Positions 427 through 44,052 of a stretch of 64,000 bases of DNA are shown here, one piece after another. A model generated the notes under the pieces. That model saw only the letters and a program-made list of their open reading frames with translations. It was not told the DNA's origin and made no database searches. The translations under genes and the position numbers were made by a program. Source of the stretch: Pseudomonadota bacterium (lineage in GTDB: Bacteria; Pseudomonadota; Gammaproteobacteria; Steroidobacterales; Steroidobacteraceae); NCBI GenBank assembly GCA_031398625.1, contig JANNNQ010000447.1:11520-75519 (forward strand). The letters are read 5' to 3'. Every line of letters begins with the position of its first letter. Position 1 is the stretch's first letter.

Positions 427-428
427 GG

Positions 429-6209: not shown

Positions 6210-6244
6210 CTACGATTCGTGGCAGACAGCGCTACGAATCATGG
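6210..6244. promoter_or_regulatory. dual palindromic operator pair (CTACG-N3-CGTAG type), cassette 1
   Basis: CTACGATTCGTGG at 6210 and CTACGAATCATGG at 6232, starts 22 bp apart. The second copy contains ATG 6241. Confidence 0.6.
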
Positions 6245-6570
6245 AGGCTCTCATGCCCGTCAGGCCCGAACCCACCCAGCCCAACGTCCCCTCGTTCGCG
6301 GAAGACCTCACCCCCGTGGCCGCACCGAAGGGTGCACCGACCCCGGCGGACTACGCGAAGGAGTGGGGCAGCTACCGGGCGCTCCATGACCTCATGGTCA
6401 ACGGCTCTCTCGCCGTCACCACCGGCAACCCCGTCCCTGCCAGCCACCCGATGCTCCGCGACTCTCACGAGGTCGACGAGAACGGCCGCGGCGGTTGGGG
6501 CGACGGCTGGGTGACCTCGAAGGCCGTGGAGCTCACCGGGGACTACCCGGCCCCAGACGACCTGCGCTGA
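6241..6570 (+). CDS. hypothetical virion-module protein
   Basis: The ORF is open from GTG 6181. ATG 6241 is preferred because it sits inside the operator exactly as ATG 25066 does. 109 aa. Confidence 0.5.
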   Translation: MEALMPVRPEPTQPNVPSFAEDLTPVAAPKGAPTPADYAKEWGSYRALHDLMVNGSLAVTTGNPVPASHPMLRDSHEVDENGRGGWGDGWVTSKAVELTGDYPAPDDLR

Positions 6571-6662
6571 TGTTCCGCGCTCTCGGCTCGGTCGTTCTTG
6601 GCGCGCTCTCCTTCGGGGTCGGCACGCTCATCGGCTATCGCATGGCTCGGCCGATCCGATGA
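6570..6662 (+). CDS. 30-aa single-TM peptide
   Basis: MFRALGSVVLGALSFGVGTLIGYRMARPIR. The start overlaps the upstream stop (TGATG) and the stop overlaps the next start (ATGA). Confidence 0.4.
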   Translation: MFRALGSVVLGALSFGVGTLIGYRMARPIR

Positions 6663-7051
6663 GCGTTGTCGTCGTCCTCGACGATGCAGGAATCGACAGC
6701 CTCTTCGGGCCAGCCGGCCCCGTCGCCGAGTTTCACGCCGACGTCGTCACGACGGTGTACGCGCGGGCTCTGGCGAAAGCGCCAATCGGTTCACCGTCGA
6801 AAACCCCGGAAGGCCACCCGGCTGGTTGGTTGCGCAGCCAGATGCATTGGGAGTTCGCGGGGGAACTGACGGCATGGGTTGTCACCGAAGCCGTCTTGTC
6901 CAAAGCCAGCGGACGACCCGGGGATCCCTACGCAAGGTGGATCGAACGACCCCAAGAACGGCCATGGAAACCACCGCCGTTCGCCCGTGACGACCGGCCA
7001 TACCTTGTGCCGGCGCTCGACGAGATCTTCCAGGAATTGGGACTGACATGA
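6659..7051 (+). CDS. head-tail joining protein (HK97 gp10-like, tentative)
   Basis: 130 aa, ATGA-coupled on both sides, positioned between the adaptor and tail genes. Confidence 0.45.
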   Translation: MSVVVVLDDAGIDSLFGPAGPVAEFHADVVTTVYARALAKAPIGSPSKTPEGHPAGWLRSQMHWEFAGELTAWVVTEAVLSKASGRPGDPYARWIERPQERPWKPPPFARDDRPYLVPALDEIFQELGLT

Positions 7052-7236
7052 GCCTTGGCGCGGTTGGCGGTACCCGGATCACGATCCTGGGTCGCGACTA
7101 CTTCATGTACCCGAACGAGAGTGGCGTGGGTTGCTACGTCCAGCCGGTGCCAGTGTTCCCGACCCTGCGGACGAACCTCTGGGACAACCCGGAGCATGAT
7201 GTCGTCGGCGATCTCGTCTTGGCGATGACCAAGTGA
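7048..7236 (+). CDS. hypothetical protein
   Basis: 62 aa, ATGA overlap upstream and GTGA overlap downstream. Confidence 0.5.
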   Translation: MSLGAVGGTRITILGRDYFMYPNESGVGCYVQPVPVFPTLRTNLWDNPEHDVVGDLVLAMTK

Positions 7237-7409
7237 GCGACCTGAGCGACAGCGACCGGGAGGCACTCAAGGCGTACGCCGCTGCCTACCGAGACTTCAA
7301 TGGCGTCGGGTGGATGTTCGCGGTCCTCGTGTTCCCGATAGTCGCCTTGTACTTGGCTGGTTGGGTCGCGGGCATATTGAGGTTCGTGGTTCCGGGAGGG
7401 GTGCAGTGA
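7233..7409 (+). CDS. 58-aa membrane protein
   Basis: VSDLSDSDREALKAYAAAYRDFNGVGWMFAVLVFPIVALYLAGWVAGILRFVVPGGVQ. GTGA-coupled at both ends with one TM helix. Below the ORF-track length cutoff. Confidence 0.45.
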   Translation: MSDLSDSDREALKAYAAAYRDFNGVGWMFAVLVFPIVALYLAGWVAGILRFVVPGGVQ

Positions 7410-7864
7410 CGATCTCCGGTCCCACCTTCGACGTCGAACGTCTAGCCCAGACCTGGGCGAAGGAGTTCCCCGGCCTCGTCGGTACCAGTGCGCCCCTGAT
7501 TGGCGTGCACCTCGTGGACGATGCGCGCTCCCCCCAGCGGGGCGCCATTGCGTCTCTGGCGGCACGTGGCACCCGGGTTGTGGACATGGAGGGCCTCGGT
7601 GATTCGGCGCGGATCTCGTGGGAGGTCAAGGCGGTCGGCGGTTCGACGGGGGCGAAGAATGAGGCGAAGCGCGGGGCCAATGCTCTGGCGTCCGCACTCC
7701 GCACCCTGGTTGGGACCCCCGTGATCGTGACGTCGCCGGGACCGGACGGGGAGACAGCGAGGCTCAGCAATGCGGAGAACGTGAACGGGCCGACGTGGGT
7801 GGGGAGTCCGGGTGGTCAGGCTACGTACCGGGTGGACGCGACGATGGTGTGGCAGCTTCCTTGA
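7406..7864 (+). CDS. hypothetical virion protein (tail terminator-type position)
   Basis: GTG 7406 overlaps the upstream TGA. 152 aa. It is the last + strand gene before the antisense island, and its 3' end overlaps a convergent gene by 44 nt. Confidence 0.5.
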   Translation: MTISGPTFDVERLAQTWAKEFPGLVGTSAPLIGVHLVDDARSPQRGAIASLAARGTRVVDMEGLGDSARISWEVKAVGGSTGAKNEAKRGANALASALRTLVGTPVIVTSPGPDGETARLSNAENVNGPTWVGSPGGQATYRVDATMVWQLP

Positions 7865-8204
7865 AGCCGCGGCAAAGGCAGTAGAAATCCGCGGAGATGT
7901 CGTCCAGTCCGTGCCAGCATTCATCGCCCTCCGCAGGCGTGGCGTGTTCGCTTCGGGGATGACCGCAGGTGCAGGGCGCGTAGTGGTTCAGCAGGACGTC
8001 GATGGTGTCGCACGGCCAACCGGGGCGTTCTGCTTCGTAGCCGCCGAACTCGTCGCCCCTGCACTCAGGCCACGGCCACCCCTTGCTCGGGTGATGTAGT
8101 TCCACGATGGCCCGAAGCGCAGGGTGGTCGACTTTCGCGAGGAGTTGGCGGTGCTGCTCCTCGGCCGCAGCGAAGCGGGCTGCCTCTTCCTCGGCGATGC
8201 TCAC
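7821..8204 (-). CDS. Cys/His/Trp-rich protein (DUF6221-like, tentative)
   Basis: GTG 8204 overlaps the upstream stop (GTGA). 127 aa with HHPSKGWPWPECRGD...WPCDTIDVLLNHY...CTCGH. Confidence 0.5.
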   Translation of the reverse strand: MSIAEEEAARFAAAEEQHRQLLAKVDHPALRAIVELHHPSKGWPWPECRGDEFGGYEAERPGWPCDTIDVLLNHYAPCTCGHPRSEHATPAEGDECWHGLDDISADFYCLCRGFKEAATPSSRPPGT

Positions 8205-8416
8205 TCTTCCCCACCTCCCGGTAGAGGGCCTAAGGCCCGTTTGAGATTCGCCATGGCCGGCCCAGGGCAGACGGCCCCTTCCCAGGTGTTCTTGTGCGCG
8301 ATGAGCACCCCGTAGCTGGTCTGCTGCTTGCCGCACCAGCGGCAGTCCGTGTGCGGCTCAGCGTGACGCATCCCGTCCAAGATGAACTGAGGGATCGGCG
8401 GGTCGGTGCGGCTCAT
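8201..8416 (-). CDS. hypothetical zinc-finger-like protein
   Basis: 71 aa, ATGA-coupled, with DCRWCGKQQTSYGVLIAHKNTW (C2H2-like). Confidence 0.5.
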   Translation of the reverse strand: MSRTDPPIPQFILDGMRHAEPHTDCRWCGKQQTSYGVLIAHKNTWEGAVCPGPAMANLKRALGPLPGGGEE

Positions 8417-8652
8417 CGCCACCGGGACCAAGAGATCAGGCCCGGGTCTGGCTGGAGTGGTGGTGCATCGGCTGGCACCTCTGAATGCGTATGCCTGGCC
8501 AGAAACCGTTCGCCAGCGGCCTCGACTGCAGCCTCGTCGAGTCCTGACACTTCCAGCCACTCACCGCAGTAACACCGCAGGGTTCGGCCGTAGCGAGTCG
8601 TCGTCTGTGGCGTGAGCCAGCGGCCAAGGATTCCTGAGCCTCGCGTCATCAT
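8413..8652 (-). CDS. hypothetical protein
   Basis: 79 aa, ATGA-coupled at both ends. Confidence 0.5.
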   Translation of the reverse strand: MMTRGSGILGRWLTPQTTTRYGRTLRCYCGEWLEVSGLDEAAVEAAGERFLARHTHSEVPADAPPLQPDPGLISWSRWR

Positions 8653-22175: not shown

Positions 22176-23702
22176 CTACTCGCCGATGGCCTTGCCGAGG
22201 AAGAGGGCCGACATCTCCTCGGCAGCTTTCCGCAGCTCTGCGTTCGGGGACCTGGCGTACAGGTTCATCGTCGTCTGAATGTCGGCGTGCCGCAGGAGGG
22301 TCATCGCGATCCGGGGGTGGATCTCGAGGGCAACCATCATCGTCGCCGCCCAATGCCTCGCGGCGTGGGGGCGGATGTGCTCGGCCCCTGCCTCTTCGAG
22401 GATGCTCACCCATTCGTCCCAGTCGTCGCGGGGGTCGATCGGCCGGCCGTTGCGCTGAGAGAACAAAAGCAGCACCTGCTCCCCGTTGATCTCCCAGCCC
22501 TTCCACCGGGGCCCTTCCTCGATCCGCTCCCGCTTCTGCGCTGTCAACCGCGCCTTGAGAAGGTCAGCGATCTGCTTCGGCATCGGCAAAGGCGCGTCGG
22601 AGGCTTTCGTCTTCACGGGCAGCAGGACCAGCCCTCCACCGTCAGAGTTCGGACACCTCGCGGCCTGAGCCTTCCCGCACGGCCACGCGGGACGCTCCAC
22701 CCCACCACCGACGACCACCTTGGGGCACTGCTTCGCCTGACGTTTCCCGCAGGGGAACAGCTTCGGCGGGCGCACCAACTCCGGTGGTTCCTTGTAGCGG
22801 TCCGCGTCCGAGCGGAGAGTCGCGGTTCCCGTTGGCTCCCCGCACCCGTGCGCGTACGTCAGTCGCGACCTCTCCGTTCCTACAGGGTCACCGCACCCAT
22901 GCCCGTCGGGGCGGTCCCGCTGGAGTTGCCAGCGAACGTTCAAGACTCCCGCGTCGAAGTCCAGCGCCGGGACGGTGAACCCCAGCGTCTCCCCCTGGCG
23001 CAGGCCGTACACGATCCGTAGCACCCACTTCGCGCCCAGCCGGCGCTTCTTGGCGACTTCGAGGACGCGGAGCATTTCGTCGAGTTCGACGTCGCGGTCT
23101 TCCTTGGGCTGCGCACCGGCGGGGAGCATGGTGAGGTCGGCGATGTTGCGGGGCATCCGGTTGCGTCGCCAGGCGATGTCGAACGCTACTTTCATCATCG
23201 CGTCGACTTGGTGGATAGAACTGGCGGCCATCCCCGCGTCGGCCATGGCTTGGTAACAGGCTTCGAGGTCTTCGGCTTTGACGGCGTCCATTCGTTTCTT
23301 GCCGATGCGGGGGTAGACGTGGTTTTTCGCGTACCCCTTGTAGGTGGCGAGAGTGGACCTGCGGTTGCCCTTGCGACCCTTGATGGGTTTCTTCGGGGCG
23401 AGGACGGTGAGGTAGTGCTCCATCCATTCCTGCACCGTGAGGGCTTTCGTGGTGGTGAGGGTTCCCGCGTCGCGGGCGTTGATCAGGTCCCGGAGGTTCT
23501 TGTTCGCTTCGGCTTTCGTGGGTGCGGACTTGGAGTATTTCTTCTCCTGTTTGCCACCGACGATGTCGAGGGTGATGTAGCCGCGCCAGGAGACGGTCTC
23601 GACGACGGTCCCGTCTACCCGGGTTTTCTTCCGGACGGTCCGGTAGACGCTGCCTTCACCGTTGGATTTGGTTCTCTTGCGGGGCTTCTGGTCCCCGCCC
23701 AT
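22176..23702 (-). CDS. int: tyrosine integrase
   Basis: Has R (YGLRQGETLG), HAARHWAAT (HxxR) and LLRHADIQTTMNLYARS (H...Y). ATG 23702 abuts the ImmA stop. Adjacent to attP. Confidence 0.9.
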   Translation of the reverse strand: MGGDQKPRKRTKSNGEGSVYRTVRKKTRVDGTVVETVSWRGYITLDIVGGKQEKKYSKSAPTKAEANKNLRDLINARDAGTLTTTKALTVQEWMEHYLTVLAPKKPIKGRKGNRRSTLATYKGYAKNHVYPRIGKKRMDAVKAEDLEACYQAMADAGMAASSIHQVDAMMKVAFDIAWRRNRMPRNIADLTMLPAGAQPKEDRDVELDEMLRVLEVAKKRRLGAKWVLRIVYGLRQGETLGFTVPALDFDAGVLNVRWQLQRDRPDGHGCGDPVGTERSRLTYAHGCGEPTGTATLRSDADRYKEPPELVRPPKLFPCGKRQAKQCPKVVVGGGVERPAWPCGKAQAARCPNSDGGGLVLLPVKTKASDAPLPMPKQIADLLKARLTAQKRERIEEGPRWKGWEINGEQVLLLFSQRNGRPIDPRDDWDEWVSILEEAGAEHIRPHAARHWAATMMVALEIHPRIAMTLLRHADIQTTMNLYARSPNAELRKAAEEMSALFLGKAIGE

Positions 23703-24259
23703 CACAGGGCCGGGGAACCGACGAGGAATAGCCCGGAGTGGCGGACAATCGGGATCGCACCGATCCGAGCATCGAGGGTATTCGGGTCCACTTGGAGCAT
23801 CTCGGCTGCCTCCCGGCGGTCCCTCCCGAAACCCAGTGCCCACGCGAGCATGGTGTCGGTGATGAGCTTCACTGCCGCCCAACGGTCGGCTTCCACTTCC
23901 ATCGCTTCGTCCACGGCCGGATCTCCCGTTGGGGCGTGGCCGAGTTCAATGTGACGCAGCTCGTGCATGAGCGTGCACCGCTGTTCCACTGGTGTCCCAA
24001 TGTTGATTCGGATGCGGCGGGTCAGGAGGTCGCAGTCGCCTGCAATGTTGCCTAGGTCGCAGATTTCGTAAGTGGCGTCGAGGCGGTATAGCTCGGCTTG
24101 GACGATTGGATCCTGCACGTGCAGCCCCCTCTCAGCCAGGCCGCCCGGGGAATATCCCGGCCCTTTGCTACGACCTGTGCTCGAATGTTGACCGTACGTG
24201 CATCTTCTTGATCGATCTAGAACCGACCGGTAGATATGACCGAACAGATGATCAATCAC
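23702..24259 (-). CDS. immA: ImmA/IrrE-family metalloprotease
   Basis: HEXXH motif MHELRHIELGH. ATGA-coupled to the repressor gene upstream and abuts int downstream. Confidence 0.7.
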   Translation of the reverse strand: MIDHLFGHIYRSVLDRSRRCTYGQHSSTGRSKGPGYSPGGLAERGLHVQDPIVQAELYRLDATYEICDLGNIAGDCDLLTRRIRINIGTPVEQRCTLMHELRHIELGHAPTGDPAVDEAMEVEADRWAAVKLITDTMLAWALGFGRDRREAAEMLQVDPNTLDARIGAIPIVRHSGLFLVGSPAL

Positions 24260-24915
24260 CTAGTCCTTGCCCCTCCCCTCGGGCCTCGGGACTCCGTTCC
24301 TGTCGTCTTTCGTGCTGCTCTGAGCTGACGGACAGGCTTTTCGGCTGCTGCTTCTGCTGCTTGCTCCTGCATCTCAGCGAGGGCCACCTGCAGGTCGACG
24401 AACTCGGCGATGAGCTCGAGCAGCAGGTTCTGCTGTCTCTGGCTGAGGGCCGACGTCCGGGCGACCATGCGGGCGAGAAATGGCGATGACCCCGTGTCGA
24501 CATCCAGGCCCATCTCGCGGCCGATGGCCAGCCAGATCCGGCGCTGAGGGACGCGCAGGACACGGGACATGGTGATGACGGTCTCGGGTTTGGGGACCGT
24601 GTTCAAGGCGAAGTTAGGGTCGCCGAGTTGCCGCCAGCGGGACCATCCGAGGCCTTCCCCGGCTTCCGCACCTAGGTCCCGGTAGGACCGGCGGCCCTTG
24701 AACAGTCTGATGAGGGTTGCGAGGGTCTCGACCTCGTCGTCGTTCGGGGCGTCTGTCAACGGAGTCCATTCCTGGCGGGGTACCTCCCAAGCCCCACGAT
24801 CGCCGGGCGCGGCGGTCGGGGCGGTACCTAATCGACATTGTGAACCACGATCCGTGGCTCGCAGTAGGGGTGTGTCGCGCTGATAACGGTGTCTGGAGCG
24901 GTGTTCTGACGGCAT
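24256..24915 (-). CDS. immunity repressor-like HTH protein
   Basis: HTH ETVITMSRVLRVPQRRIWLAIGREMG, and it is the partner of ImmA. The first 52 codons of the ORF have only about 56% GC3 and contain operator-like sites, so the real start may be TTG 24759. Confidence 0.6.
   Translation of the reverse strand: MPSEHRSRHRYQRDTPLLRATDRGSQCRLGTAPTAAPGDRGAWEVPRQEWTPLTDAPNDDEVETLATLIRLFKGRRSYRDLGAEAGEGLGWSRWRQLGDPNFALNTVPKPETVITMSRVLRVPQRRIWLAIGREMGLDVDTGSSPFLARMVARTSALSQRQQNLLLELIAEFVDLQVALAEMQEQAAEAAAEKPVRQLRAARKTTGTESRGPRGGARTR
24845..24857. promoter_or_regulatory. solitary operator-type palindrome CCACGATCCGTGG
   Basis: Same CNACG-N3-CGTNG architecture. It lies in the low-GC3 5' part of the repressor ORF. 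Confidence 0.4.
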
Positions 24916-24920
24916 AGCAA

Positions 24921-24961
24921 CTACGAATCGTAGACGTTATGACTACGGATCGTGTTAGAGT
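24921..24961 (+). promoter_or_regulatory. dual operator pair plus early rightward promoter, cassette 3
   Basis: A perfect CTACGAATCGTAG at 24921 and CTACGGATCGTGT at 24943. TAGACG is -35-like and TAGAGT (24956-24961) is -10-like. Confidence 0.6.
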
Positions 24962-25034: not shown

Positions 25035-25069
25035 CGATGATCCATAGCCGAAAGGACTACGATCCATGG
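25035..25069. promoter_or_regulatory. dual operator pair, cassette 3b (overlaps start of cro-like gene)
   Basis: A degenerate CGATGATCCATAG at 25035 and CTACGATCCATGG at 25057, 22 bp apart. ATG 25066 lies inside the second site. Confidence 0.5.
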
Positions 25070-25299
25070 CACTTGAACTAGTCCCCGACGACGACACGGA
25101 ACGTCTCTGGACTGTCCCCGAACTCGCAAAAAGTCTCCGCATGTCGCGAGGCAAAGTGACCGCCCTCATCGACGCCGGACGCTTCGGCCCTTACCAGGAC
25201 GTCGCCGAGACCGGGCAACGGGTACAGCGCCGCGTCCCCGAGTCCGGGCGTCTCGCGTACCTCGAATCGGTCACCATCCACCCCCGCCGCAGCGCCTGA
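25066..25299 (+). CDS. HTH DNA-binding protein (Cro/excisionase-like, HTH_17 type)
   Basis: LWTVPELAKSLRMSRGKVTALIDAGRF. Divergent from the repressor. Confidence 0.6.
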   Translation: MALELVPDDDTERLWTVPELAKSLRMSRGKVTALIDAGRFGPYQDVAETGQRVQRRVPESGRLAYLESVTIHPRRSA

Positions 25300-25309
25300 G
25301 GAGAACGAC

Positions 25310-28204: not shown

Positions 28205-28359
28205 GGGCCCGGAAAGAGCGGGCGGTAGCTCACCGGTCCCTGCGGACTCTCTCGGCGCTGACTGCTGCCGCTGGCACCCGGTTGAGTCCGTCGATGCATG
28301 ATCACCTCAGGGCGGCGTTGGAGTTCACTGCCCCTCGGCGCTGGTGGCGATTCTGGTGA
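28201..28359 (+). CDS. 52-aa hypothetical protein
   Basis: ATGA-coupled, about 75% GC3. Confidence 0.35.
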   Translation: MRARKERAVAHRSLRTLSALTAAAGTRLSPSMHDHLRAALEFTAPRRWWRFW

Positions 28360-28838
28360 CTGCCACCGAACTGGACTCCGAGCTGGTTCTGTCGCTGAGG
28401 GTTGTTGGTGTTCCGACAACCCAGGGCAGCAAGAACGGGTTCGTGGTCAAGACGAAGACCGGGAAGCTCCGCGCTCTCGTGGTCGATGTGAAGCGGAAGG
28501 AGCTCCGGTCGTGGCGGGAGGCGATCCGCTCCGATGCTGTTGCTGAACTGGGGGAGGACTGGGTGCCGTTGTCTGGGCCGATCCGGGTGACGTTGCATTT
28601 CACGTTGCCGAAGCCGGCCAGCGCCCCGAAGCGTCGGCGTACGTGGCCGATCGGTGCCAGGTCCGGGGATATCGACAAGTTAGAGCGTGCCGCTTTGGAT
28701 GCCCTCACGGATGCTGCCCTGTGGCGGGATGACGGCCAGGTGGTGGACCTGCATGGGACGAAGGACTACCCGGATCTCAAGGTGACATGCCCTGGTGTTC
28801 TGATCCGCGTCTACCGGGTGGATGTCCTGGCGGTCTGA
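28344..28838 (+). CDS. rusA: RusA-family Holliday junction resolvase
   Basis: GVPTTQGSKNGF...GPIRVTLHFTLPKP...GDIDKLERAALDALT...WRDDGQVVDL. The start may be GTG 28356, which overlaps the upstream stop. Confidence 0.75.
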   Translation: MAILVTATELDSELVLSLRVVGVPTTQGSKNGFVVKTKTGKLRALVVDVKRKELRSWREAIRSDAVAELGEDWVPLSGPIRVTLHFTLPKPASAPKRRRTWPIGARSGDIDKLERAALDALTDAALWRDDGQVVDLHGTKDYPDLKVTCPGVLIRVYRVDVLAV

Positions 28839-28863
28839 GGTTCTTTTGCCATGCCCAACATGA

Positions 28864-28903
28864 CTACGATTCATAGTCATTGCATCTATGGATCGTGTAC
28901 TGT
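28864..28903 (+). promoter_or_regulatory. dual operator pair plus promoter, cassette 4
   Basis: CTACGATTCATAG at 28864 and CTATGGATCGTGT at 28886. TAGTCA is -35-like and TACTGT is -10-like. Confidence 0.55.
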
Positions 28904-28987
28904 CTAAACATTCGCTCGCCCCCCGACGGGGAAGAGGTCGGGGGGCTTCGAGCAGCGGACTCCAGACGCCCCATAGGGAGGCATCCA

Positions 28988-29422
28988 ATGGACGAGAGTA
29001 CGCCCACCGTCGACCGCACCACGGCAGTCCTGTCCATCCGGCCCGTCTACGCCGACCGCATCCTCGACGGGACAAAGACAATCGAGTTCCGACGCAAGCC
29101 GCTCCCCAAGACCGTTGAAACGGTGCTGGTCTGGCGCACTGGCAAGGGCGGCGGGGTGATTGGGCAGTTCAACGTCGTCCGCCAGGTCGACGGCATCGTC
29201 AACGACTTCGTCATCCAGGACTTCGGTGGCACTCTGCGGACGGTCACCGGATCTGGCATCGGATTCAATGCGCTCTACGCCTACGCAGGACACAAGGGTC
29301 GGCTGGCAGGCATCTACATCGGGAACGTCACCCCGACCATCAAGGCCGAACGGTTCGGGTGGAGCGCAGGGCCCCAGGCGTTCCGGTATGCCCCGCTCGG
29401 GTGGCGTGAGGTGGTCTGGTGA
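28988..29422 (+). CDS. ASCH (PUA-like) domain protein
   Basis: LSIRPVYADRILDGTKTIEFRRKPLP. GGGAGG lies upstream of ATG 28988. Confidence 0.6.
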   Translation: MDESTPTVDRTTAVLSIRPVYADRILDGTKTIEFRRKPLPKTVETVLVWRTGKGGGVIGQFNVVRQVDGIVNDFVIQDFGGTLRTVTGSGIGFNALYAYAGHKGRLAGIYIGNVTPTIKAERFGWSAGPQAFRYAPLGWREVVW

Positions 29423-29571
29423 TCCGCTCCATCCTCCGAGTCCTCTTCGCCCCACACCACGACGGGCCGAACGAGTGCGGTCGCGGCCGATGCGATGTGA
29501 ACGGCTGCGGAGCCAAGCGTTCGACGTGCTGCCCTCATTGCCCTGTGGCCTACCGACGGAGGCAGGGGTGA
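29419..29571 (+). CDS. 50-aa Cys-rich zinc-ribbon-like peptide
   Basis: VIRSILRVLFAPHHDGPNECGRGRCDVNGCGAKRSTCCPHCPVAYRRRQG. GTGA-coupled at both ends. Below the ORF-track cutoff. Confidence 0.4.
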   Translation: MIRSILRVLFAPHHDGPNECGRGRCDVNGCGAKRSTCCPHCPVAYRRRQG

Positions 29572-29966
29572 GCACTGACATCCCAGACCGGACCCGGAAG
29601 CTCATCCAGTCCCGCGCCGACAACGCATGCGAGATCTGCCGCAAACCGATGACCGACATCCACCATCGGCAACGCAAAGGCATGGGCGGGACATCGTCTC
29701 TGGTGATCCACAACCCGGAGAACCTCATCGGCCTCTGCCGCTGGCATCACGGGTGGACGCACGCTAACCCCGCCCACGCTGTCCTCGGGGGCTGGATCGT
29801 CCCCACGACCGTCGACCCCGAGTTCTTCCCCGTCTGGGCTCAGAACGTGAACTACGGCTACTCGGCCTGGTTTTCCTTGCTGCCTGATGGATGTGTCCGC
29901 TGGGTCAACGACCTCCACGAACCGCTGAATCTTCCGCCGGGGATGCCCTCCCTGAGCGCCGCTTGA
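29568..29966 (+). CDS. HNH endonuclease
   Basis: CEICRKPMTDIHHRQRKG...NLIGLCRWHHGWTH. GGAGG lies upstream of GTG 29568. Confidence 0.75.
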   Translation: MSTDIPDRTRKLIQSRADNACEICRKPMTDIHHRQRKGMGGTSSLVIHNPENLIGLCRWHHGWTHANPAHAVLGGWIVPTTVDPEFFPVWAQNVNYGYSAWFSLLPDGCVRWVNDLHEPLNLPPGMPSLSAA

Positions 29967-29967
29967 A

Positions 29968-30414
29968 ATGGAGAACCTCGTGTCCCTCACCACAGTCATG
30001 TCCGGACCCACGGCGGACCATGCGCCAGTCGTCCACGAAAAGCCACCCGTCACCCTCTACCCCGTCCTCCCCATCGCCGCCGTCTCCATGCCTACCGCGT
30101 GGGCACCGTCCGATGACGAGTACTGCATGGACGAGAACCACCACGGGGGAACCCTGTTCCACTGCACGAGGCGATCAGGCCACTCCGGAAGACATGCCCA
30201 GATTTGGTGGTGGACGGCCCGTCTCCAGTCCCTCCCACGTGCCCTGGTCCGGGCAGTGTGGGGACAGAAGGCGGTTCCGGTGCCAACCTGGAACTGCCGC
30301 TGCGGTCACCACGTCCGCGTCCGGCCTGGGACGTCGGCGGGGTTCCACAACCTTCCCTGCCCGAACTGCTCAGGCGTCACGATGGTCCTCGTCGACCAGG
30401 CGGTGTCGGCATGA
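29968..30414 (+). CDS. hypothetical Cys/His-rich protein
   Basis: 148 aa with C-terminus WNCRCGHHVRV...LPCPNCSG. The stop overlaps the methylase start. Confidence 0.5.
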   Translation: MENLVSLTTVMSGPTADHAPVVHEKPPVTLYPVLPIAAVSMPTAWAPSDDEYCMDENHHGGTLFHCTRRSGHSGRHAQIWWWTARLQSLPRALVRAVWGQKAVPVPTWNCRCGHHVRVRPGTSAGFHNLPCPNCSGVTMVLVDQAVSA

Positions 30415-32428: not shown

Positions 32429-33124
32429 ATGTCCGCCGGGCGACTGGGCTGCATCCTCACCCCGAAGCAGGGGAACCGTGTTCCCGAAGACCCCTCGATC
32501 ATGGTCTGTTTGGACAACGGGTGTGGTCCGGGGAAGGACGGGAAGCCGGGCAAGGGATGGCCTAGTGAGGGCAAGTTTCTGGTTTGGCTTCAGAAGATGG
32601 AGCAGTACGGACGGCACGGGGAGGATCGGGTCCTGTTCGCTGTCGCCCCCGACGTTGTTGGTGATGCGGTGGCGACCTTGGAGCGTGCGGTCGAGTGGTT
32701 GCCGATCATCCGTGACCTCGGCTTCCCGACTGCTCTAGCCGCACAGGACGGACTCGAGCACCTCGATATCCCATGGGATGACTTCGACGTGCTGTTCGTC
32801 GGTGGCAGCACTGAATGGAAGCTAGGCCCTGCCGCCCGACGAATCGTGTTGCAGGCCAAGCAGCATGGCAAGCACGTGCACATGGGCCGGGTCAACTCAG
32901 CCAAGCGCCTGGAGTACGCCACCGCTATCGGATGCGACACCGCAGACGGAACCAAAATCACGTTCGGACCTGACATCAACCTGCCCCTCGTCCTCAGCTG
33001 GAACCGGGGCTCTTCACTCTCGCCCAGGAGGCGTCATGAATCTCACCACCGTCCCGGACTCCGGCGAATGCGTCATGGTCACCGCTTCGAGCGACATCGA
33101 ACACCGGTGCCCGCACGTCGATGA
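32429..33124 (+). CDS. dpdA: DpdA-like (TGT-superfamily) DNA transglycosylase, tentative
   Basis: LGCILTPKQGN...FAVAPDVVGDA...LFVGGSTEWKLG...HMGRVNSAKRL...GCDTADGT follows the pattern of actinophage queuine-tRNA-ribosyltransferase-like proteins. Upstream in-frame starts exist at 32378 and 32393. The last 30 or so codons have low GC3. Confidence 0.55.
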   Translation: MSAGRLGCILTPKQGNRVPEDPSIMVCLDNGCGPGKDGKPGKGWPSEGKFLVWLQKMEQYGRHGEDRVLFAVAPDVVGDAVATLERAVEWLPIIRDLGFPTALAAQDGLEHLDIPWDDFDVLFVGGSTEWKLGPAARRIVLQAKQHGKHVHMGRVNSAKRLEYATAIGCDTADGTKITFGPDINLPLVLSWNRGSSLSPRRRHESHHRPGLRRMRHGHRFERHRTPVPARR

Positions 33125-34948: not shown

Positions 34949-34989
34949 CTATGGATCGTAGACGTTACGACTACGGATCGTGCTAATAT
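34949..34989 (+). promoter_or_regulatory. dual operator pair plus promoter, cassette 5
   Basis: CTATGGATCGTAG at 34949 and CTACGGATCGTGC at 34971. -35-like TAGACG and -10-like TAATAT. Nearly identical to cassette 3 over about 40 bp. Confidence 0.6.
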
Positions 34990-35094
34990 TTGATCCAGTC
35001 GTCCAGGTAGAACAGCGAGGCCCCCGGCGTCTTCAGCGCCAGGGGCCTCCACCGATCGGCTCCTGACCACTGCAACCCAGGAGGTACGACCAGC

Positions 35095-38073: not shown

Positions 38074-38114
38074 CTACGATCCATCAACCTGATGACCACG
38101 AGTCGTAGTAGTCT
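38074..38114. promoter_or_regulatory. dual operator pair, cassette 6
   Basis: CTACGATCCATCA at 38074 and CCACGAGTCGTAG at 38096. TAGTCT is -10-like. Confidence 0.5.
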
Positions 38115-38320
38115 CGAACATGACGCACCCCCGAACTTCGATCGGGGGTGCGGACGAAAAGCGAAGAGGCCAGCTCGGCAAAAGCTGACCTCTTCATTCA
38201 CCACCCCAGAACACCGGAAGGGGGTGGGTCCGTCGTGGCCCATTCTGTCATAAGCACTACCCCTCGTGGCCAATCCGAGAGCGCAGCACTAGAAAATCCC
38301 CAGGTTCAGGTGGCGACCCG

Positions 38321-38846: not shown

Positions 38847-39842
38847 ATGAGCATGGACCCAATCCTGTGGGCCATGAAGGACGCACCGATTGCGGACGCT
38901 GAGGAGTGGGCAATCCTTGTCTGCCTCGCAGAGCGCGCCGACGAAGACGGGTGCTCATCCTTCCCATCGCAGGCCACGATCGCCAAGCGGATCAAGATGG
39001 CCGACCGCACGGTCCGCCGCCGCCTGGAGGCAATGGAATCCCGGGGTCTCATCAGTCGCGGCGACCAGTCCGCAGCGGCCTACCTCAAGGACAAGGCCCC
39101 GGTCGTCTGGGACCTTCTGATCCCTCTCTCGTGGTTCCCGAACCTGGATCGGATTCAGGAGTTCAGGGAACGCAAGGGGCGCGGACCGCTGTCGGTGGCG
39201 GATCGGCCCGACATCAGCGCCTCCCCGGACAAGCTGCGTCGTGTCGACTTTGGGGTACCTCGCCCCCCGGACTGGGGGACCGGGCGGACTTCAAGTCCGG
39301 GGGGACTCTCTGACCGGGCGGACTCTGGGACCAAAGCGACCGGACTTGAAGTCCAAAGCGACCGGACTACAAGTCCGACAACCCTCAAAGAACTAACCCT
39401 CCCCATTAACCCTCCTCTAGTCGGAGCCGAGACGGCACCGACGACAGAGGTTAAGCCGAAGCGGAAGCGTCGGACGGAAGCCGAACTGAACACCGACCGT
39501 CCCGAGCTTGGTCGGCTCTGCGATCACCTCGCAGAGCGCGTTGAGGGACATGGCTTCACTCGGCCCGTTGTGTCTCAGGACTGGCTCACCACCGCCCGCC
39601 GGATGCTCGACATCGACGGGTATACCGAGGATCAGATCCACCGAGCCATCGAGTGGTGTCAGGACAGCGACTTCTGGTACCCGAATGTCCGCTCGATGGA
39701 CAAGCTCCGCGAGCAGTACGAGACCTTGCGAGATCGCGCCATGTCCGAGCAGCGCAAGAAGGCGAAGGCCAAACCGCGCCCGGCCGACGGCAACCAAGAC
39801 CACTGGAACAACCCCAATGCCAGCTTCGGCCTACCCGCCTAA
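38847..39842 (+). CDS. replication initiator/organiser-like wHTH protein
   Basis: The N-terminus EEWAILVCLAERADEDGCSSFPSQATIAKRIKMADRTVRRRLEAMESRGLI is an HTH_36-type wHTH. It lies directly upstream of the loader and helicase genes. Confidence 0.5.
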   Translation: MSMDPILWAMKDAPIADAEEWAILVCLAERADEDGCSSFPSQATIAKRIKMADRTVRRRLEAMESRGLISRGDQSAAAYLKDKAPVVWDLLIPLSWFPNLDRIQEFRERKGRGPLSVADRPDISASPDKLRRVDFGVPRPPDWGTGRTSSPGGLSDRADSGTKATGLEVQSDRTTSPTTLKELTLPINPPLVGAETAPTTEVKPKRKRRTEAELNTDRPELGRLCDHLAERVEGHGFTRPVVSQDWLTTARRMLDIDGYTEDQIHRAIEWCQDSDFWYPNVRSMDKLREQYETLRDRAMSEQRKKAKAKPRPADGNQDHWNNPNASFGLPA

Positions 39843-39855: not shown

Positions 39856-40518
39856 ATGACCACGCGCGACCAGTTCGAAGCACGTCTCCTCGCCAGCCTC
39901 GATGACATCGTCGCCGGTTACGAGGACGCCTACCGCAGCGATAACCCCAATGGACTCTGGGAGTCGTGGGCGGAGTCGGAGAAGTACCGGCTGCGATCCT
40001 GCATCCAGCGCTGGGTGGGCTACGTCCCGCCCGTGTTCCGTTCGGCAGACCTCGCCAAGCTCGGGCCCGAGCAGCACGGGGATGCCCTCCGCGGCTACCT
40101 GACGGGGACCACCCGAAACCTGATGCTTGCCGGGCCGATCGGCACCGGGAAGTCGTTCGCCGCTTGGGCTGTCGCCAATGAGGCTGCGGCCCGAGGCTGG
40201 CGCCCCCGGGCGTGGTCGACGCCTCGCCTGCTTCTGGACATGCGCCCCGAGGGCGACCCGCAGGCGTTCACCAACGCCTGCCTCGCGGACCTGCTGATCC
40301 TCGACGACCTCGGGGCCGCCCGACCGACAGATTGGGCGACGGAGCAGATCTACTCGATCGCGGAGGAGCGCTGCAACCAGCAACTGCGCACAATTGTCAC
40401 CACCAACTCGACGTTCGATCAGCTCACCGCCATCTGGGGTGCGCCGACGATGGACCGTCTTCGGCACGCCGGCACGAGTCTCGTCTTCAAGGGCGATTCC
40501 CGCCGGGGCCCGGTATGA
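39856..40518 (+). CDS. DnaC/IstB-like helicase loader ATPase
   Basis: Walker A LMLAGPIGTGKSF, Walker B LLILDDLG. Confidence 0.7.
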   Translation: MTTRDQFEARLLASLDDIVAGYEDAYRSDNPNGLWESWAESEKYRLRSCIQRWVGYVPPVFRSADLAKLGPEQHGDALRGYLTGTTRNLMLAGPIGTGKSFAAWAVANEAAARGWRPRAWSTPRLLLDMRPEGDPQAFTNACLADLLILDDLGAARPTDWATEQIYSIAEERCNQQLRTIVTTNSTFDQLTAIWGAPTMDRLRHAGTSLVFKGDSRRGPV

Positions 40519-43154
40519 GCGCCGCACTGGAGGCCGTCCCGGACGATGGTGGACGTCACGCGCCGCCGAACGACGTCGAGGCCGAGCGGTGCGTACTGGG
40601 GTCGCTGATGCTGTCCGCATCCGTGCTCGACGACGTCGCCCCGCTGATCTCGGGCAGGGACTTCTACCGCCCAGCCCACGAGACCATTTGGGAGGCGATC
40701 ACCGGGCTTGCCAGCGAAGGGAACCCCTTCGACGCCGTAGCTGTGGCCGACCGACTCGACGCCAACGGTGACCTGTTGCGTATCGGTGGACCGGTGTACG
40801 TCCACACTCTCCTCAGCAGTGTCCCAACGGCTGCCAGTGGCGGCTACTACGCCCGGATCGTCGCCGACAAGGCCGTCCGCCGCCGGGTCATCGACGCGGG
40901 AACCCGGATTGCCAGACTCGGCTACACCAGCACGGGCGACGAGGCCCTGAACCTCATGGAGGCCGAGGTGCTGGCCGCGAACGATCGCACCTCCACCGAG
41001 GACTACCGGGCGATCGGAATGCTGCTTGACGAGACCTTCGACGAGATCGAAGCCGCCGGGAAGCGCGAGCAGGGCGTGACCGGGGTGCCCACCGGGTTCA
41101 TCGACCTCGACAAGCTCACCAGCGGCCTCCACGCGGGTCAGTTGATCCTCGTGGCGGGTAGGCCAGCGATGGGCAAGAGCTGCCTCGGAATGGACCTTTG
41201 CAGGTCGGCGTCCATCCACCATGGCCTGACGTCGGTGATGTTCAGTCTCGAGATGGGCCGATCCGACATCACGACGCGGCTCCTGTCGGCCGAGGCGAAG
41301 GTGCAGCTTCAGAACATCCGCAAGGGCAACGTCGACGAAATCGAGTGGGCGGCTCTGGCTCGCGCCCGGACCAGACTCGACGACGCCCCGTTCTTCATCG
41401 ACGACAGCCCGAACCTGACCCTCGCGGACATTCGCAGCAAGGTTCGCCGGCTGAAGCAGAAGAACGACCTGAGGCTGGTTGTCATCGACTACCTCCAGCT
41501 AATGACCAGCGGGAAGAAGGTCGAGTCGCGCCAGCAGGAGGTGAGCGAATTCTCCCGGGCGCTGAAGCTTTTGGCGAAGGAAGTGGAGGTGCCGATCGTT
41601 GCGCTGTCTCAGCTGAACCGAGGGCCGGAGCAGCGGCAAGATAAGACACCGCAAGCATCGGACCTGAGGGAATCGGGATGCCTGACGCGGGAGACGACCT
41701 TGCTCAGAGCGGATACGGGCGCCCCAGTTAGCTTCGGGGAGCTCATGGACAAGGGGTGGGAAGGCGTCTCCGTCTGGTCACTGGACGACGACCGGAAGAT
41801 TGTCGCTGCACCCATAACCAACGTCTTCCCCTCTGGGGTCAAGCAGACGTTCAAAATGCTGATGGCCTCTGGCCGAACAGTGACCGCCACCGACACCCAC
41901 AAATTCAGGACGCTCCACGGTTGGACGGCGCTGGGTGATCTCGTCCCCGGATCGCGGCTTGCCATTCCCCGCGCAATCCCGGCGCCGATGACCGGTGGAC
42001 TGGGGTGGTCAACCTACAGGCTCGGACTGTTGGCCCATCTCCTGGGAGATGGCTGCGTACTGACGAAGCAGCCAGTCCACTACACCAGCGAGGACGAGGA
42101 GAACATTCGGTTCGTCACCGAGGCAGCGGCCGAGTTCGGCATTACTCCCCGTCGCGTGGCCCAAGGGAACTGGTGGCATGTCTATCTCCCCGCTCCAGCC
42201 GCCGGTCGCAATCCGATCAGCAACTGGTTCCGAGAGATGGGCATTGGCAACCTCCGCAGCCACGAGAAGCACCTGCCAGCAGAGCTGTTCGGAATGACGA
42301 ACGCTGAAGTGTGCACCTTTCTTCGCCACCTGTGGGCGACTGACGGCAGAGTGGCCGAGCCCTCGAGCATGGCCAGTGGCATCGCAATCATTTCCTACGC
42401 CACAACCAGTCGACGCCTCGCGGACGACGTGGCGCTCCTCCTGGCCCGCCTCGGAATCGTGGCGAGGATCAAGGTGGTCCCGGAGGAGCGCGGGAGGGTT
42501 GGCTACCGAGTCACTATCGCTGACGCCGGTTCGATGCGGATCTTCTGCGAATCCATTGGAGTGCATGGCGCCAGAGGGGTCAGGGCCGACCGTCTTCTCT
42601 CCGAGCTGGTGGGCAAGAGGCTCAACCCGAACAAGGGCGCCATCCCACGTGAGATGTGGGACGAGATCAGGTCGCTCCGGGCCGAGGCCGGCATGACGGA
42701 GCGCGCGTTCCAGAGTCGGCTCGAAACCAGTTACTGCGGGACCACGCTCTACAAGACGGGGCTGTCGCGTGAGCGGATGGGGAGAGCGGCAGAAATCCTC
42801 AACTCGGATGACCTCCGGGGCTTCGCCAGCGATGACGTGTTCTGGGACGAGGTTGTTTCGATCATCCCTGCGGCTGTCGTCCCGGTCTTCGACGCGACAG
42901 TCAAGGGCACGCACAGCTTCATCGCGGACGGGATCGTCGCGCACAACAGCCTCGAGCAGGACGCCGATCTGATCATCTTGCTGCACCGTCCAGACGTGTA
43001 CGAGAAGGAGTCTCCTCGGGCGGGTGAGGCGGACCTCATCGTTGCCAAGCACCGCAACGGGCCGACGGAAACGCTCAAGATGGTCTTCCAAGGCCACTAC
43101 TCGCGTTTCGCCGACATGGCCGACGACTGGACCCCTCCGGAGCGTGCCTCGTGA
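40515..43154 (+). CDS. dnaB: replicative DNA helicase DnaB, interrupted by an intein
   Basis: PPNDVEAERCVLGSLML, GRPAMGKS, VVIDYLQL and ALSQLNRGPEQRQDK. The exteins join as DLRESG / SLEQDADLIILLHR. Confidence 0.9.
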   Translation: MSAALEAVPDDGGRHAPPNDVEAERCVLGSLMLSASVLDDVAPLISGRDFYRPAHETIWEAITGLASEGNPFDAVAVADRLDANGDLLRIGGPVYVHTLLSSVPTAASGGYYARIVADKAVRRRVIDAGTRIARLGYTSTGDEALNLMEAEVLAANDRTSTEDYRAIGMLLDETFDEIEAAGKREQGVTGVPTGFIDLDKLTSGLHAGQLILVAGRPAMGKSCLGMDLCRSASIHHGLTSVMFSLEMGRSDITTRLLSAEAKVQLQNIRKGNVDEIEWAALARARTRLDDAPFFIDDSPNLTLADIRSKVRRLKQKNDLRLVVIDYLQLMTSGKKVESRQQEVSEFSRALKLLAKEVEVPIVALSQLNRGPEQRQDKTPQASDLRESGCLTRETTLLRADTGAPVSFGELMDKGWEGVSVWSLDDDRKIVAAPITNVFPSGVKQTFKMLMASGRTVTATDTHKFRTLHGWTALGDLVPGSRLAIPRAIPAPMTGGLGWSTYRLGLLAHLLGDGCVLTKQPVHYTSEDEENIRFVTEAAAEFGITPRRVAQGNWWHVYLPAPAAGRNPISNWFREMGIGNLRSHEKHLPAELFGMTNAEVCTFLRHLWATDGRVAEPSSMASGIAIISYATTSRRLADDVALLLARLGIVARIKVVPEERGRVGYRVTIADAGSMRIFCESIGVHGARGVRADRLLSELVGKRLNPNKGAIPREMWDEIRSLRAEAGMTERAFQSRLETSYCGTTLYKTGLSRERMGRAAEILNSDDLRGFASDDVFWDEVVSIIPAAVVPVFDATVKGTHSFIADGIVAHNSLEQDADLIILLHRPDVYEKESPRAGEADLIVAKHRNGPTETLKMVFQGHYSRFADMADDWTPPERAS
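41679..42947 (+). mobile_element. DnaB intein (423 aa) with LAGLIDADG homing endonuclease
   Basis: Starts CLTRET, ends VAHN followed by Ser+1. LAGLIDADG blocks LLAHLLGDGCV and FLRHLWATDGRV. Inserted at the conserved RESG/S(I/L)EQDAD site. Confidence 0.85.
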
Positions 43155-43282
43155 CCCGCGAAGCCCTGGCCGCGGAACTGGCCCTACCTCTCACCAATGA
43201 CGACGGCTGGGGTGACGACCACGTCCTCGTTCGCCGGAAGACGTTGGCCGCGTACCTGGAACTGGCGGAGGCCGAGTCGTGA
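43151..43282 (+). CDS. 43-aa hypothetical protein
   Basis: GTGA-coupled at both ends. Confidence 0.4.
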   Translation: MTREALAAELALPLTNDDGWGDDHVLVRRKTLAAYLELAEAES

Positions 43283-43851
43283 GCGTCCTCAACTTCAGGG
43301 CCCTCAACCATCCTCAGCAGGTCGCCACCCGTGGCGCTCTGGATGAGGTGGATGACCGGGGAACGGATCCCGCGTTCGTTGCTGAGCTGGCTGCCCGGTT
43401 CGGTGGCGACTTCACTCTCGATGTGGCTGCGGCGGCGCATAACGCGAAGTGCGCGCGGTTCTACACGCGCGCCGATGATGGCCTCTCGCAGCCGTGGCCG
43501 GGAAGGGTCTGGTGCAACGCCCCGTATTCGCATCCGAATCTTGCTCTGTGGGTGCGGAAGGCGTGGGTGGAGTGGCAGTCGGGCCGTCCGGAGCTGATTG
43601 TGATGCTTCTGCCGGCGAACCGGGTGGAGCAGGCGTGGTGGCAGGAGTTGGTGGAGCCGTTCCGGGACCGGTCGGGGAGCCCGTTGCGGATCGAGTTCCT
43701 GCCGGGTCGGTTGCGATTCGTAAAGCCGGGGCAGACGCATATCGGGCCGAATGAGCGGCCTCCGTTCGGGTGCTGCCTGGCGATCTGGGAGCGGGTGGGT
43801 CCGAAGCCGCCTTCGGTGCTGGACATGCTCGACTTCGGGGAGGCCCTGTGA
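43279..43851 (+). CDS. phage Dam-type N6-adenine DNA methyltransferase
   Basis: FTLDVAAAAHNAKCARFYT...VWCNAPYS (NPPY variant)...MLLPAN...GRLRF. Confidence 0.65.
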   Translation: MSVLNFRALNHPQQVATRGALDEVDDRGTDPAFVAELAARFGGDFTLDVAAAAHNAKCARFYTRADDGLSQPWPGRVWCNAPYSHPNLALWVRKAWVEWQSGRPELIVMLLPANRVEQAWWQELVEPFRDRSGSPLRIEFLPGRLRFVKPGQTHIGPNERPPFGCCLAIWERVGPKPPSVLDMLDFGEAL

Positions 43852-44006
43852 GCCCCTCTCCCTCCCCCGCTGCCCCTGAGTGCCGGGTGCGTCATGCGAG
43901 CCCGTCAGCGCCCCACCAGCGGTCTGCGGTGCCCGGTTCCCCGTCATCCCTCGCCGTCCCGTTGGCGTCTTCGCCCACCCGCTCCCTTCTCCTATCCCCA
44001 ACACGT

Positions 44007-44052
44007 CCACGATTCGTAGTCACTTGACACACGGATCGTAGACAACTAACTT
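44007..44052 (+). promoter_or_regulatory. dual operator pair plus promoter, cassette 7 (leaderless gene)
   Basis: CCACGATTCGTAG at 44007 and ACACGGATCGTAG at 44029. TTGACA-17 nt-TAACTT. ATG 44059 lies 6 nt after the -10. Confidence 0.6.

Follow-up and report, generated by a model that had tools for sequence, protein, structure and literature searches.

Pairs of 13-bp palindromes spaced 22 bp apart as probable dispersed repressor operators in a temperate, actinophage-like element

We analyzed a stretch of 64,000 nucleotides (hereafter, the window) from contig JANNNQ010000447.1 of assembly GCA_031398625.1, which is deposited as a Pseudomonadota bacterium (positions 11,520 to 75,519 of the forward strand). 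The window carries a temperate, tailed-phage-like element with 65% G+C, which is of an actinobacterial type. Eight places in the window hold two copies of a 13-bp palindrome that start exactly 22 bp apart. A Logan contig (sample SRR20217204) whose overlap with the window is identical supplies another 9.5 kb to the left, and three more pairs lie there, near the portal and head genes, so that the element has at least 11 pairs, all with the 22-bp spacing. From their sequence and arrangement, the pairs almost certainly mark a dispersed operator regulon; that a protein binds them is something that we infer. We propose that the palindromes are the operators of one phage-encoded, dimer-forming helix-turn-helix (HTH) repressor, and that the binding protein is most likely a 167-aa protein with an XRE-type fold that is encoded at 24256–24759. 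We consider this proposal probable, although well short of certain.

The pairs in the window start at 6210, 10458, 24921, 25035, 28864, 34949, 38074, and 44007. As a preliminary description of this DNA had it, all 16 sites are present at these positions, and each pair consists of two 13-mers with a 9-bp spacer (22 bp from start to start). The symmetrised consensus of the sites is CTACGAATCGTAG, a 13-bp palindrome with 6-bp arms. Four bases (A3, G5, C9, and T11) are identical in all 16 sites, and the core is nnAYGRWYCRTnn. The sites have dyad symmetry: their symmetrised and raw profiles agree, and a perfect copy of the palindrome, CTACGNNNCGTAG, occurs once in the window, at 24921, versus an expectation of 0.02 copies. 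The contrast that had been drawn with the asymmetric, one-orientation stoperators of phage L5 therefore stands.

The motif is too degenerate for a census of exact palindromes, which was too strict to recover it. Conversely, the core pattern with up to three mismatches has 292 matches in the window, and shuffled sequences then reach 12 pairs at some spacing. Because this background is too high for a significance test, we used a position weight matrix (PWM) that was built from the 16 sites, and we scored the roughly 64,000 positions of the window by the summed score at a distance of 22 bp while leaving out one cassette at a time. The eight pairs took ranks 1 to 8. With a PWM from all of the sites, which is circular for the eight pairs, they scored 27–39 bits (summed) and the best other position scored 16 bits. 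Among sites with at least 9 bits, 22 bp was the sole recurrent spacing (eight pairs), and the remaining spacings were distances within the group of sites in the immunity region. In 200 first-order Markov shuffles, there were no pairs at 22 bp and at most one pair at any spacing from 13 to 100 bp. Finally, all eight pairs are in non-coding DNA, which is 12.5% of the window under our gene calls, so the intergenic location that had been claimed for them holds.

A set of eight pairs proved to be too small. The PWM also identified strong single sites at 24845, 32837, 23009 (within the integrase gene), and 54256. As for the three pairs to the left of the window, one is in a divergent intergenic region; another is just upstream of the portal gene, and its second site has decayed; and the third is inside a 525-aa open reading frame (ORF), where the third-position G+C signal dips. 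As read from the translation alone, this third pair appears to fall between an N-terminal part that is protease-like and a C-terminal part that is scaffold-like. On the other hand, the pairs do not precede every multi-gene unit, as had been claimed: the 20 kb beyond 44041 on the right hold no 22-bp pair, and coverage of the leftward units is partial. Inside a gene at 46265–46299, we noticed the sequence CCCTGATTCATGG-agattgcat-CTGCGTTCCGTGG, whose spacer resembles that of the pair at 28864 (tcattgcat); it is possible that this is a decayed ninth cassette. Also, the cassettes at 24921 and 28864 had been described as near-identical, yet they agree at just 27 of 44 positions. The real near-match is between 24921 and 34949 (35 of 44).

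Five of the eight pairs in the window (24921, 28864, 34949, 38074, and 44007) are followed by a −10-like hexamer (TANNNT), always in the rightward orientation; none of the eight has this hexamer in the reverse orientation. We will call these class I:

24921..24955, plus strand: pair CTACGAATCGTAG-N9-CTACGGATCGTGT, whose first site is the perfect palindrome; predicted early rightward promoter-operator of the immunity switch
24956..24961, plus strand: −10-like TAGAGT directly after the second site of this pair; the TGT before the hexamer provides an extended −10 (TGn); the equivalent hexamer in the related contig L070 is TAGATT
28864..28903, plus strand: pair with −10-like TACTGT (28898–28903), between the RusA gene and an ASCH-domain gene; 89-nt leader from the end of the second site to the start codon
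34949..34989, plus strand: pair with −10-like TAATAT (34984–34989), preceded by TGC
38074..38114, plus strand: pair with −10-like TAGTCT (38109–38114), before the replication module (initiator, DnaC-like loader, and intein-bearing DnaB)
44007..44059, plus strand: pair in a consensus promoter, with TTGACA (44024–44029), 17 nt, TAACTT (44047–44052), 6 nt, and the ATG at 44059; the second site fills the spacer

A match to TANNNT is expected at about 0.5% of positions in a genome with 65% G+C. The offset of the hexamer from the second site is 0 or 1 in four of these cassettes, and 6 at 44007. Thus, the claim that the downstream copy fills the spacer between a −35-like and a −10-like hexamer fits five cassettes; the other pairs have no −10 hexamer, and most of the −35 matches are poor. 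The geometry at 44007 predicts a leaderless mRNA. At 24921 and 34949, the second site ends in GTGT or GTGC instead of GTAG, which yields the extended −10 (TGn). This change may be why the proximal sites of these two pairs are off consensus and score below the distal sites. More broadly, the distal site outscores the proximal site at 24921, 28864, 34949, and 44007, and the order is reversed at 38074. A stronger distal site is a pattern seen at cooperatively bound operators, so by analogy it may reflect cooperative binding here.

Several of the leaders contain strong G+C-rich hairpins with stems of C5–6/G5–6 (28914–28953, 35017–35049, 38124–38152, 38163–38195, and also 10514–10601). Those of the cassettes at 28864, 34949, and 38074 are 15–40 nt downstream of the predicted starts, and the one at 10514–10601 is in the leader that follows the pair at 10458. 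Their Z-scores range from −1.7 to −3.95, with no clear U-tract on the plus strand, and they may be 5′ stabilisers or targets for attenuation or antitermination.

The description of all eight pairs as promoter cassettes holds only in part. The pairs at 6210, 10458, and 25035, as well as the three pairs to the left of the window, have no −10 hexamer, and they overlap start codons, ribosome-binding regions, or, in one case, the interior of an ORF. We will call these class II. Those in the window are listed here together with the two intergenic single sites:

6210..6244, unstranded: pair CTACGATTCGTGG-N9-CTACGAATCATGG in a 446-bp non-coding gap; the pair stops 8 nt short of the ATG (6253) that starts the first head-tail gene, and it overlaps the GGAGG ribosome-binding site of that gene
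10458..10492, unstranded: pair ACATGGATCGTAG-N9-CCACGGATCGTAG, in a divergent region, with a leftward XRE-type HTH gene on one side and the putative major tail gene (10602, rightward) on the other
25035..25069, unstranded: pair CGATGATCCATAG-N9-CTACGATCCATGG, 114 bp downstream of the pair at 24921; the second site holds the ATG (25066) of the first rightward gene
24845..24857, unstranded: single site CCACGATCCGTGG in the leader of the repressor gene, 76 bp to the left of the pair at 24921
32837..32849, unstranded: single site CGACGAATCGTGT (14 bits), followed after 15 nt by a possible ATG (32865), with no partner at 22 bp on either side

For the first head-tail gene, the start at 6253 is more likely than the one at 6241, given the GGAGG upstream and an independent annotation of the Logan contig. 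The pair at 10458 leaves a 109-nt leader to the major tail gene, and its first site contains the ATG of the XRE gene (10461). In three pairs (25035, 6210, and, on the minus strand, 10458), a site reads CTACGAWYCATGK with an ATG at positions 10–12, and at 25066 and 10461 this ATG is the start codon of an HTH gene. We considered leaderless transcripts from the ATGs within sites (6241, 25066, and 10461), and rejected them because there is no TANNNT 6–7 nt upstream. Three pairs without a −10 (the one at 6210, the one upstream of the portal gene, and the one in the 525-aa ORF) are placed like stoperators, away from promoters. The gap before the pair at 6210 (5807–6209) contains no tRNA or structured RNA, and there are no Rfam matches in the window. 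A separate dyad, GTGAC-N4-GTCAC, lies at 6186–6199, 11 bp upstream of this pair, and could be a site for another regulator.

The leftward repressor gene and the first rightward gene flank the single site at 24845 and the pairs at 24921 and 25035, and such an interval is where immunity operators are canonically found. The candidate binding proteins and their neighbors are:

24256..24759, minus strand: candidate immunity repressor, 167 aa with a TTG start; XRE-type HTH in the structural model, and a conserved disordered tail, AARKTTGTESRGPRGG
23702..24118, minus strand: ImmA/IrrE-type M78 metalloprotease gene (Peptidase_M78, E = 6e-10), immediately downstream of the repressor gene; putative inducer
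22176..23702, minus strand: tyrosine integrase, with which the leftward repressor-protease-integrase unit ends
25066..25299, plus strand: HTH_17-like protein of 77 aa, the first rightward gene; Xis or Cro candidate (24.1 bits versus a Pfam cut-off of 27)
10105..10461, minus strand: XRE (HTH_3) protein of 118 aa, at the head of a leftward block (7821–10461) within the structural genes

The repressor had been described as 24256–24915, but the shorter ORF (24256–24759) is more likely because homology starts at residue 53–61 of the long form. The 52 extra N-terminal residues of the ATG-started ORF are Arg-rich and outside every homology, and an independent gene call also gives 167 aa. Similarly, the product of 25066 had been called Cro-like. 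Its HTH_17 match is weak and of the Xis/MerR type, and this protein may be Xis instead of Cro.

The repressor matches PHROG 12831 ("transcriptional repressor") and is 29–37% identical to annotated immunity repressors of Gordonia and Mycobacterium phages. A tblastn search with the repressor found 21 phage records, all of them from Gordonia or Mycobacterium phages (the hosts include M. smegmatis mc2 155, M. abscessus, and M. chelonae), and neither BPs nor any other named Cluster G phage was among them. A full HMMER search found 128 relatives. The repressor has no Pfam domain and hence no S24 autopeptidase domain. In an AlphaFold2 model of the monomer (95 relatives, pLDDT 86.6), a five-helix XRE-type HTH (residues 13–82) is followed by a 34-residue helix (107–140) and a disordered tail; the long modelled helix would be compatible with a role in oligomerisation. 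The nearest solved folds are those of ClgR, the controller C-proteins of restriction-modification systems, CapH, DdrO, SinR, and P22 c2, and the modelled HTH has template-modelling scores (normalised to the target) of 0.6–0.77 with structures of the XRE family. Several of these fold neighbors bind paired sites as dimers of dimers. By sequence, neither the repressor nor the HTH_17 protein had a match in the Protein Data Bank, and no similarity of the repressor to ImmR or DdrO was detectable. The repressor and the XRE protein at 10105 show no similarity to each other, so we dropped the idea that they are paralogues.

Within the repressor family, conservation is highest outside the HTH, in the disordered C-terminal tail, AAR[KR][TS]TGTE[SAG]RGPRGG, which is encoded by the last 25 codons (24256–24330) and stands out in two alignments; it is invariant across relatives that are 38–62% identical overall. 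This tail could be a protease recognition site, a minor-groove arm, or a degron. In two of the relatives (P0002 and P0004), the HTH domain is duplicated in tandem.

Related immunity regions suggest that the sites matter. Contigs of relatives were obtained for five proteins (0.7–14 kb). In the metagenomic contig L070, the repressor is 56% identical and the product of the first rightward gene is 49% identical. L070 keeps the single site (CCACGATTCGTGT) and, at the same 76-bp offset, a pair with the 22-bp spacing (ACACGAACAGTAG-N9-CTATGATTCGTGT) and TAGATT directly after it. It also has a weak pair over the ATG of the first gene, 113 bp from its own strong pair (114 bp in the window). L071, whose repressor is 62% identical, keeps the single site, and then the contig ends. 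In a relative with 39% identity, a different palindrome (GGATCGGC-N6-GCCGATCC) occupies the corresponding place ahead of TACTGT, which is what co-evolution of operator and repressor would produce. These comparisons show that the sites are under selection and change as the proteins diverge. Farther away, L072 (a repressor relative with 29% identity) has a repeated dyad of its own, CGTCTA-N4-TAGACG with related half-sites (GTCTAC), in its divergent control region (9770–10000), which indicates a different specificity with a similar layout. Searches for further loci with the repressor had no result in IMG/VR; in JGI metagenomes, they yielded two contigs, each about 1 kb long, and a word-indexed protein search with the repressor returned itself alone.

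Putting these observations together, we propose that one repressor dimer would bind each 13-bp dyad and that two dimers at a distance of 22 bp would cooperate as a dimer of dimers, perhaps via the long helix. Because 22 bp is about two helical turns, the two dimers would lie on about the same face of the DNA. In class I, the proximal site is in the predicted −35/−10 spacer and the distal site is over the −35 region, so the complex would span from the −35 to the edge of the −10 and would keep RNA polymerase out. The silencing would be direct, without a cascade, for every early module: the switch, the module after RusA, the module before DUF5131, the replication module, and the long operon of the right arm. 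The class II pairs (those over the first rightward gene's start, upstream of the portal gene, within the protease/scaffold-like ORF, ahead of the head-tail genes, and where the XRE and major tail genes diverge) would be auxiliary operators, either as stoperator-like roadblocks to elongation or at translation starts, or as looping partners for promoter-bound tetramers. Induction would proceed by cleavage of the repressor by the adjacent ImmA/IrrE-type metalloprotease, as for ImmR/ImmA of ICEBs1 and DdrO/IrrE of Deinococcus. In a bolder version of this proposal, which we regard as rather doubtful, the promoter-less pairs across the head and tail genes, instead of being decayed promoters, are the symmetric, paired counterpart of stoperators, or else they anchor tetramer-to-octamer loops by which the whole prophage is held in a repressed rosette, and the agent is a previously uncharacterised family of XRE-type repressors with the AAR[KR][TS]TGTE-RGPRGG tail that are inactivated by ImmA-type proteases.

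The preliminary description had one dimeric or tetrameric HTH protein clamping all of the promoters. An oligomeric HTH protein that acts at many promoters is still the best reading because the immunity switch is among them and the second site fills the spacer in five; three of the pairs in the window are promoter-less, so "all promoters" does not describe them. Several other observations count against our proposal. No promoter was identified for the repressor gene itself. The invariant bases (A3, G5, C9, and T11) put the centers of the half-sites about 7 bp from each other, a small distance for a classical HTH dimer, and the flanking TGA/TCA bases, which might extend the dyad, are weakly conserved. 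A strict scan for sigma-70 promoters called none of the eight cassettes, with a tool that needs 9 of 12 matches to the E. coli consensus and is ill-suited to actinobacterial promoters. Except for TTGACA at 44024, the −35 matches in the class I cassettes are poor; a weak −35 is usual in actinobacterial promoters. The comparison with relatives also has its weak points. In the pattern comparison, the relatives' contigs are under 2 kb, so it covers the immunity region. Conservation cannot tell the repressor from the HTH_17 protein as the binder because both genes flank the region and have diverged alike (56% and 49% identity). And around the repressor gene of phage Whitney, a distant homologue, we found no recurrent operator-like word by a crude test, which we take to be uninformative.

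The most serious alternative is that another HTH protein of the phage binds the sites and that the repressor acts only locally or elsewhere. The binder would be the 77-aa HTH_17-like protein (25066–25299), in a Cro-type role, or the 118-aa XRE protein (10105–10461). Each of these genes has a pair over its own ATG, which fits with autoregulation. Also, the HTH_17 gene is kept beside the sites in L070, and the XRE protein is a bona fide match to HTH_3. Still, we think that this is fairly unlikely. The HTH_17 match is under the Pfam cut-off, and proteins of the HTH_17/Xis type usually bind direct repeats, not dyads. The XRE gene is in an insertion-like leftward block with a transposase-like gene, so it is an unlikely master regulator. 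Moreover, there is no obvious reason for a lytic Cro-type protein to occupy every early promoter plus the late region. It is much less likely that the repeat is a promoter module whose dyads are read by RNA polymerase with a phage-specific sigma factor or activator and switch the units on. In favor of such a module, the −10 hexamers are in a fixed register in five cassettes, and the site often contains TACGAT, which is itself a match to TANNNT. However, the motif is dyad-symmetric and is duplicated at a two-turn spacing, while promoters are asymmetric; 6 of the 11 pairs have no −10 and overlap start codons or coding sequence; the proximal site is in the spacer, where activators do not bind; and no gene for a sigma factor or RNA polymerase was seen among the scanned genes.

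Less probable again is that a global regulator of the host binds the sites and couples the phage promoters to host physiology. Against this, the cassette pattern (AYGNNTCRTAG-N11-AYGGATCGT) is at a chance-like level in 185,579 reference genomes: there were 67 single matches, in unrelated phyla, with none clustered and none from an evident relative, versus a chance estimate of about 100. There were no matches in IMG/VR. To our knowledge, the motif resembles no regulator box of Actinobacteria, and in the relatives the operator sequence shifts with the divergence of the repressor. Finally, the high background of the three-mismatch search is what an artefact of chance or composition would have in its favor. 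The leave-one-out PWM, the lack of pairs in the shuffles, the non-coding location, and the conservation in L070 rule this out as nearly as such evidence can.

Among deposited phages, the element is without a close relative. The closest known relatives of the portal are those of Arthrobacter phages (36–38% identity), and megablast of 18 kb (24000–30000 and 1–12000) against 50,697 phage records gave no match. The window starts with the 3′ end of the major head gene, which is followed by a beta-helix tail-spike-like gene and the head-tail genes. The leftward block (7821–10461) separates the tail-terminator gene from the putative major tail gene, after which come the tail genes, including a 1093-aa ORF that is a candidate tape measure by its size and position. 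To the right of the leftward unit, the rightward arm encodes Sak4-like, Gam, RusA, C5-methylase, and DUF5131 proteins before the replication genes. In the window and the 9.5 kb on its left, we recognised no terminase. Since the arm includes a C5-methylase gene (30411) and many of the sites contain GATC, we considered that the sites are methylase targets, and we rejected this because their center varies (GAATC, GATTC, GGATC, or GAGTC).

A few other features of the element are worth recording. The leftward block has seven small genes on the minus strand, with the XRE-type HTH gene at its head, and 8882–9463 strongly matches PHROG 4285 ("transposase"); the block looks like a moron or mobile module that was inserted into the structural operon. 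The replication-initiator gene (O-like/DnaD-like) contains three exact GGACT-N3-AGTCC palindromes (39286–39298, 39342–39354, and 39364–39376), the last two of which are 22 bp apart; these may be origin iterons, as in lambda O. The DnaB-like helicase (40515–43154) is split by an intein with a LAGLIDADG homing-endonuclease domain. The region at 59908–63758 has 69–72% G+C and contains a 588-aa ORF without a family match, followed by a 695-aa FtsK/SpoIIIE-like protein (PHROG 31069, E = 7e-103). This region may be phage DNA, a plasmid-like module, or host flank. ARAGORN reported a tRNA-Thr (GGT) at 55486–55564, which is below the gathering score for tRNA in Rfam and overlaps predicted ORFs, and which is probably spurious or a fragment.

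If our proposal is correct, then this is a clean, sequence-defined regulon for an uncharacterised lineage of phages, in which one protein and one 35-bp cassette should account for the lysogenic silencing of five early promoters. It might also serve as a tight, modular repressor/operator pair in high-GC Actinobacteria.

The dispersed sites are less novel than the preliminary description had suggested, as 18–30 dispersed repressor sites are known from phages L5 and phiC31, and paired palindromic half-operators occur at five regions of the genome of the Cluster G phage BPs (PMC4557955). The principle of dispersed, paired operators has thus already been shown experimentally in actinophages. In BPs, the repressor gp33(103) is a tetramer in solution, and a full operator consists of two 12-bp palindrome-type half-operators that are 5 or 8 bp apart (PMC4557955). 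The five operator regions include the gaps between structural genes 5–6 and 26–27, and several operators overlap promoters with lowered activity in the lysogen, where P6, P27, and P55 are down-regulated (PMC4557955). As in BPs, the element has a dyad site in many small intergenic regions, including the control region between the repressor and the early genes, and it has two-site units at a constant distance. The two systems differ in that the starts of paired BPs sites are 17 or 20 bp apart with one site per pair well conserved, versus 22 bp with both conserved here, and in the number of pairs (five regions versus at least 11 pairs). BPs gp33 has 103 or 136 aa and confers integration-dependent immunity, with attP inside the repressor gene. 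Here, the repressor has 167 aa, and an ImmA-type protease gene separates it from the integrase gene. What also sets the element apart from BPs is the division into promoter-embedded pairs in the early arm and promoter-less pairs in the late arm.

In Cluster A phages such as L5 and Bxb1, one immunity repressor has more than 20 sites. Some are at promoters, and others lie in the short gaps between genes of long operons and stop elongation there (PMC9283540). Those of the L5 type are asymmetric, single, orientation-dependent 13-mers that are bound by a monomer via two domains (PMC9283540). The promoter-less pairs of the late region are placed like these stoperators, but they are dyad-symmetric and paired. 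Cluster O phages have over 30 single, near-invariant 17-bp dyads (TGTTCGG-N3-CCGAACA) whose function is not established (PMC4351075). The element shares with them a short dyad with a 3-bp center, placement in many small gaps, and a leftward gene for a DNA-binding protein within the structural operon; it differs in its fixed pairing, which the Cluster O dyads lack, and in the link to an immunity switch, which has not been described for them. Phage P1 C1 is another repressor with many dispersed operators, which are asymmetric and bound by a monomer, and the operators of phiC31 are single, conserved 17-bp inverted repeats. The element resembles both in having one repressor with operators across the genome, except that here they are paired dyads. 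A precedent for the pairs themselves is OR1–OR2 of lambda CI, where adjacent dyads are also about two turns apart at a divergent switch, with the stronger site outside and the weaker one on the promoter core. Unlike lambda CI, the repressor has no S24 domain and instead has a long helix and a disordered tail after the HTH, and the operators form pairs rather than triplets and are at many loci rather than two.

As for the switch, the gene order of ICEBs1 is immR-immA-int opposite xis (PMC5812530), and the element has the same arrangement: a gene for an XRE-fold repressor, an M78 protease and an integrase on the same strand, and a small divergent gene of the HTH_17/xis type. ImmR, however, acts at one divergent promoter region, and the sites here are dispersed. 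DdrO is inactivated by the COG2856 metalloprotease IrrE (PMC6868357). As with DdrO/IrrE and CapH/CapP, an XRE-fold HTH protein is encoded beside a COG2856/M78 protease, and its cleavage is putative here. CapH, too, is inactivated by its COG2856-type metalloprotease partner. By analogy, then, the system would work like that of BPs, with a stoperator-like component, and would be switched like ImmR/ImmA, while by sequence the repressor is a member of neither family. This would extend the paired-palindrome layout of BPs to a second, unrelated family of repressors with an ImmA-type protease, which suggests that the layout is a recurrent solution among actinophages and not a peculiarity of Cluster G.

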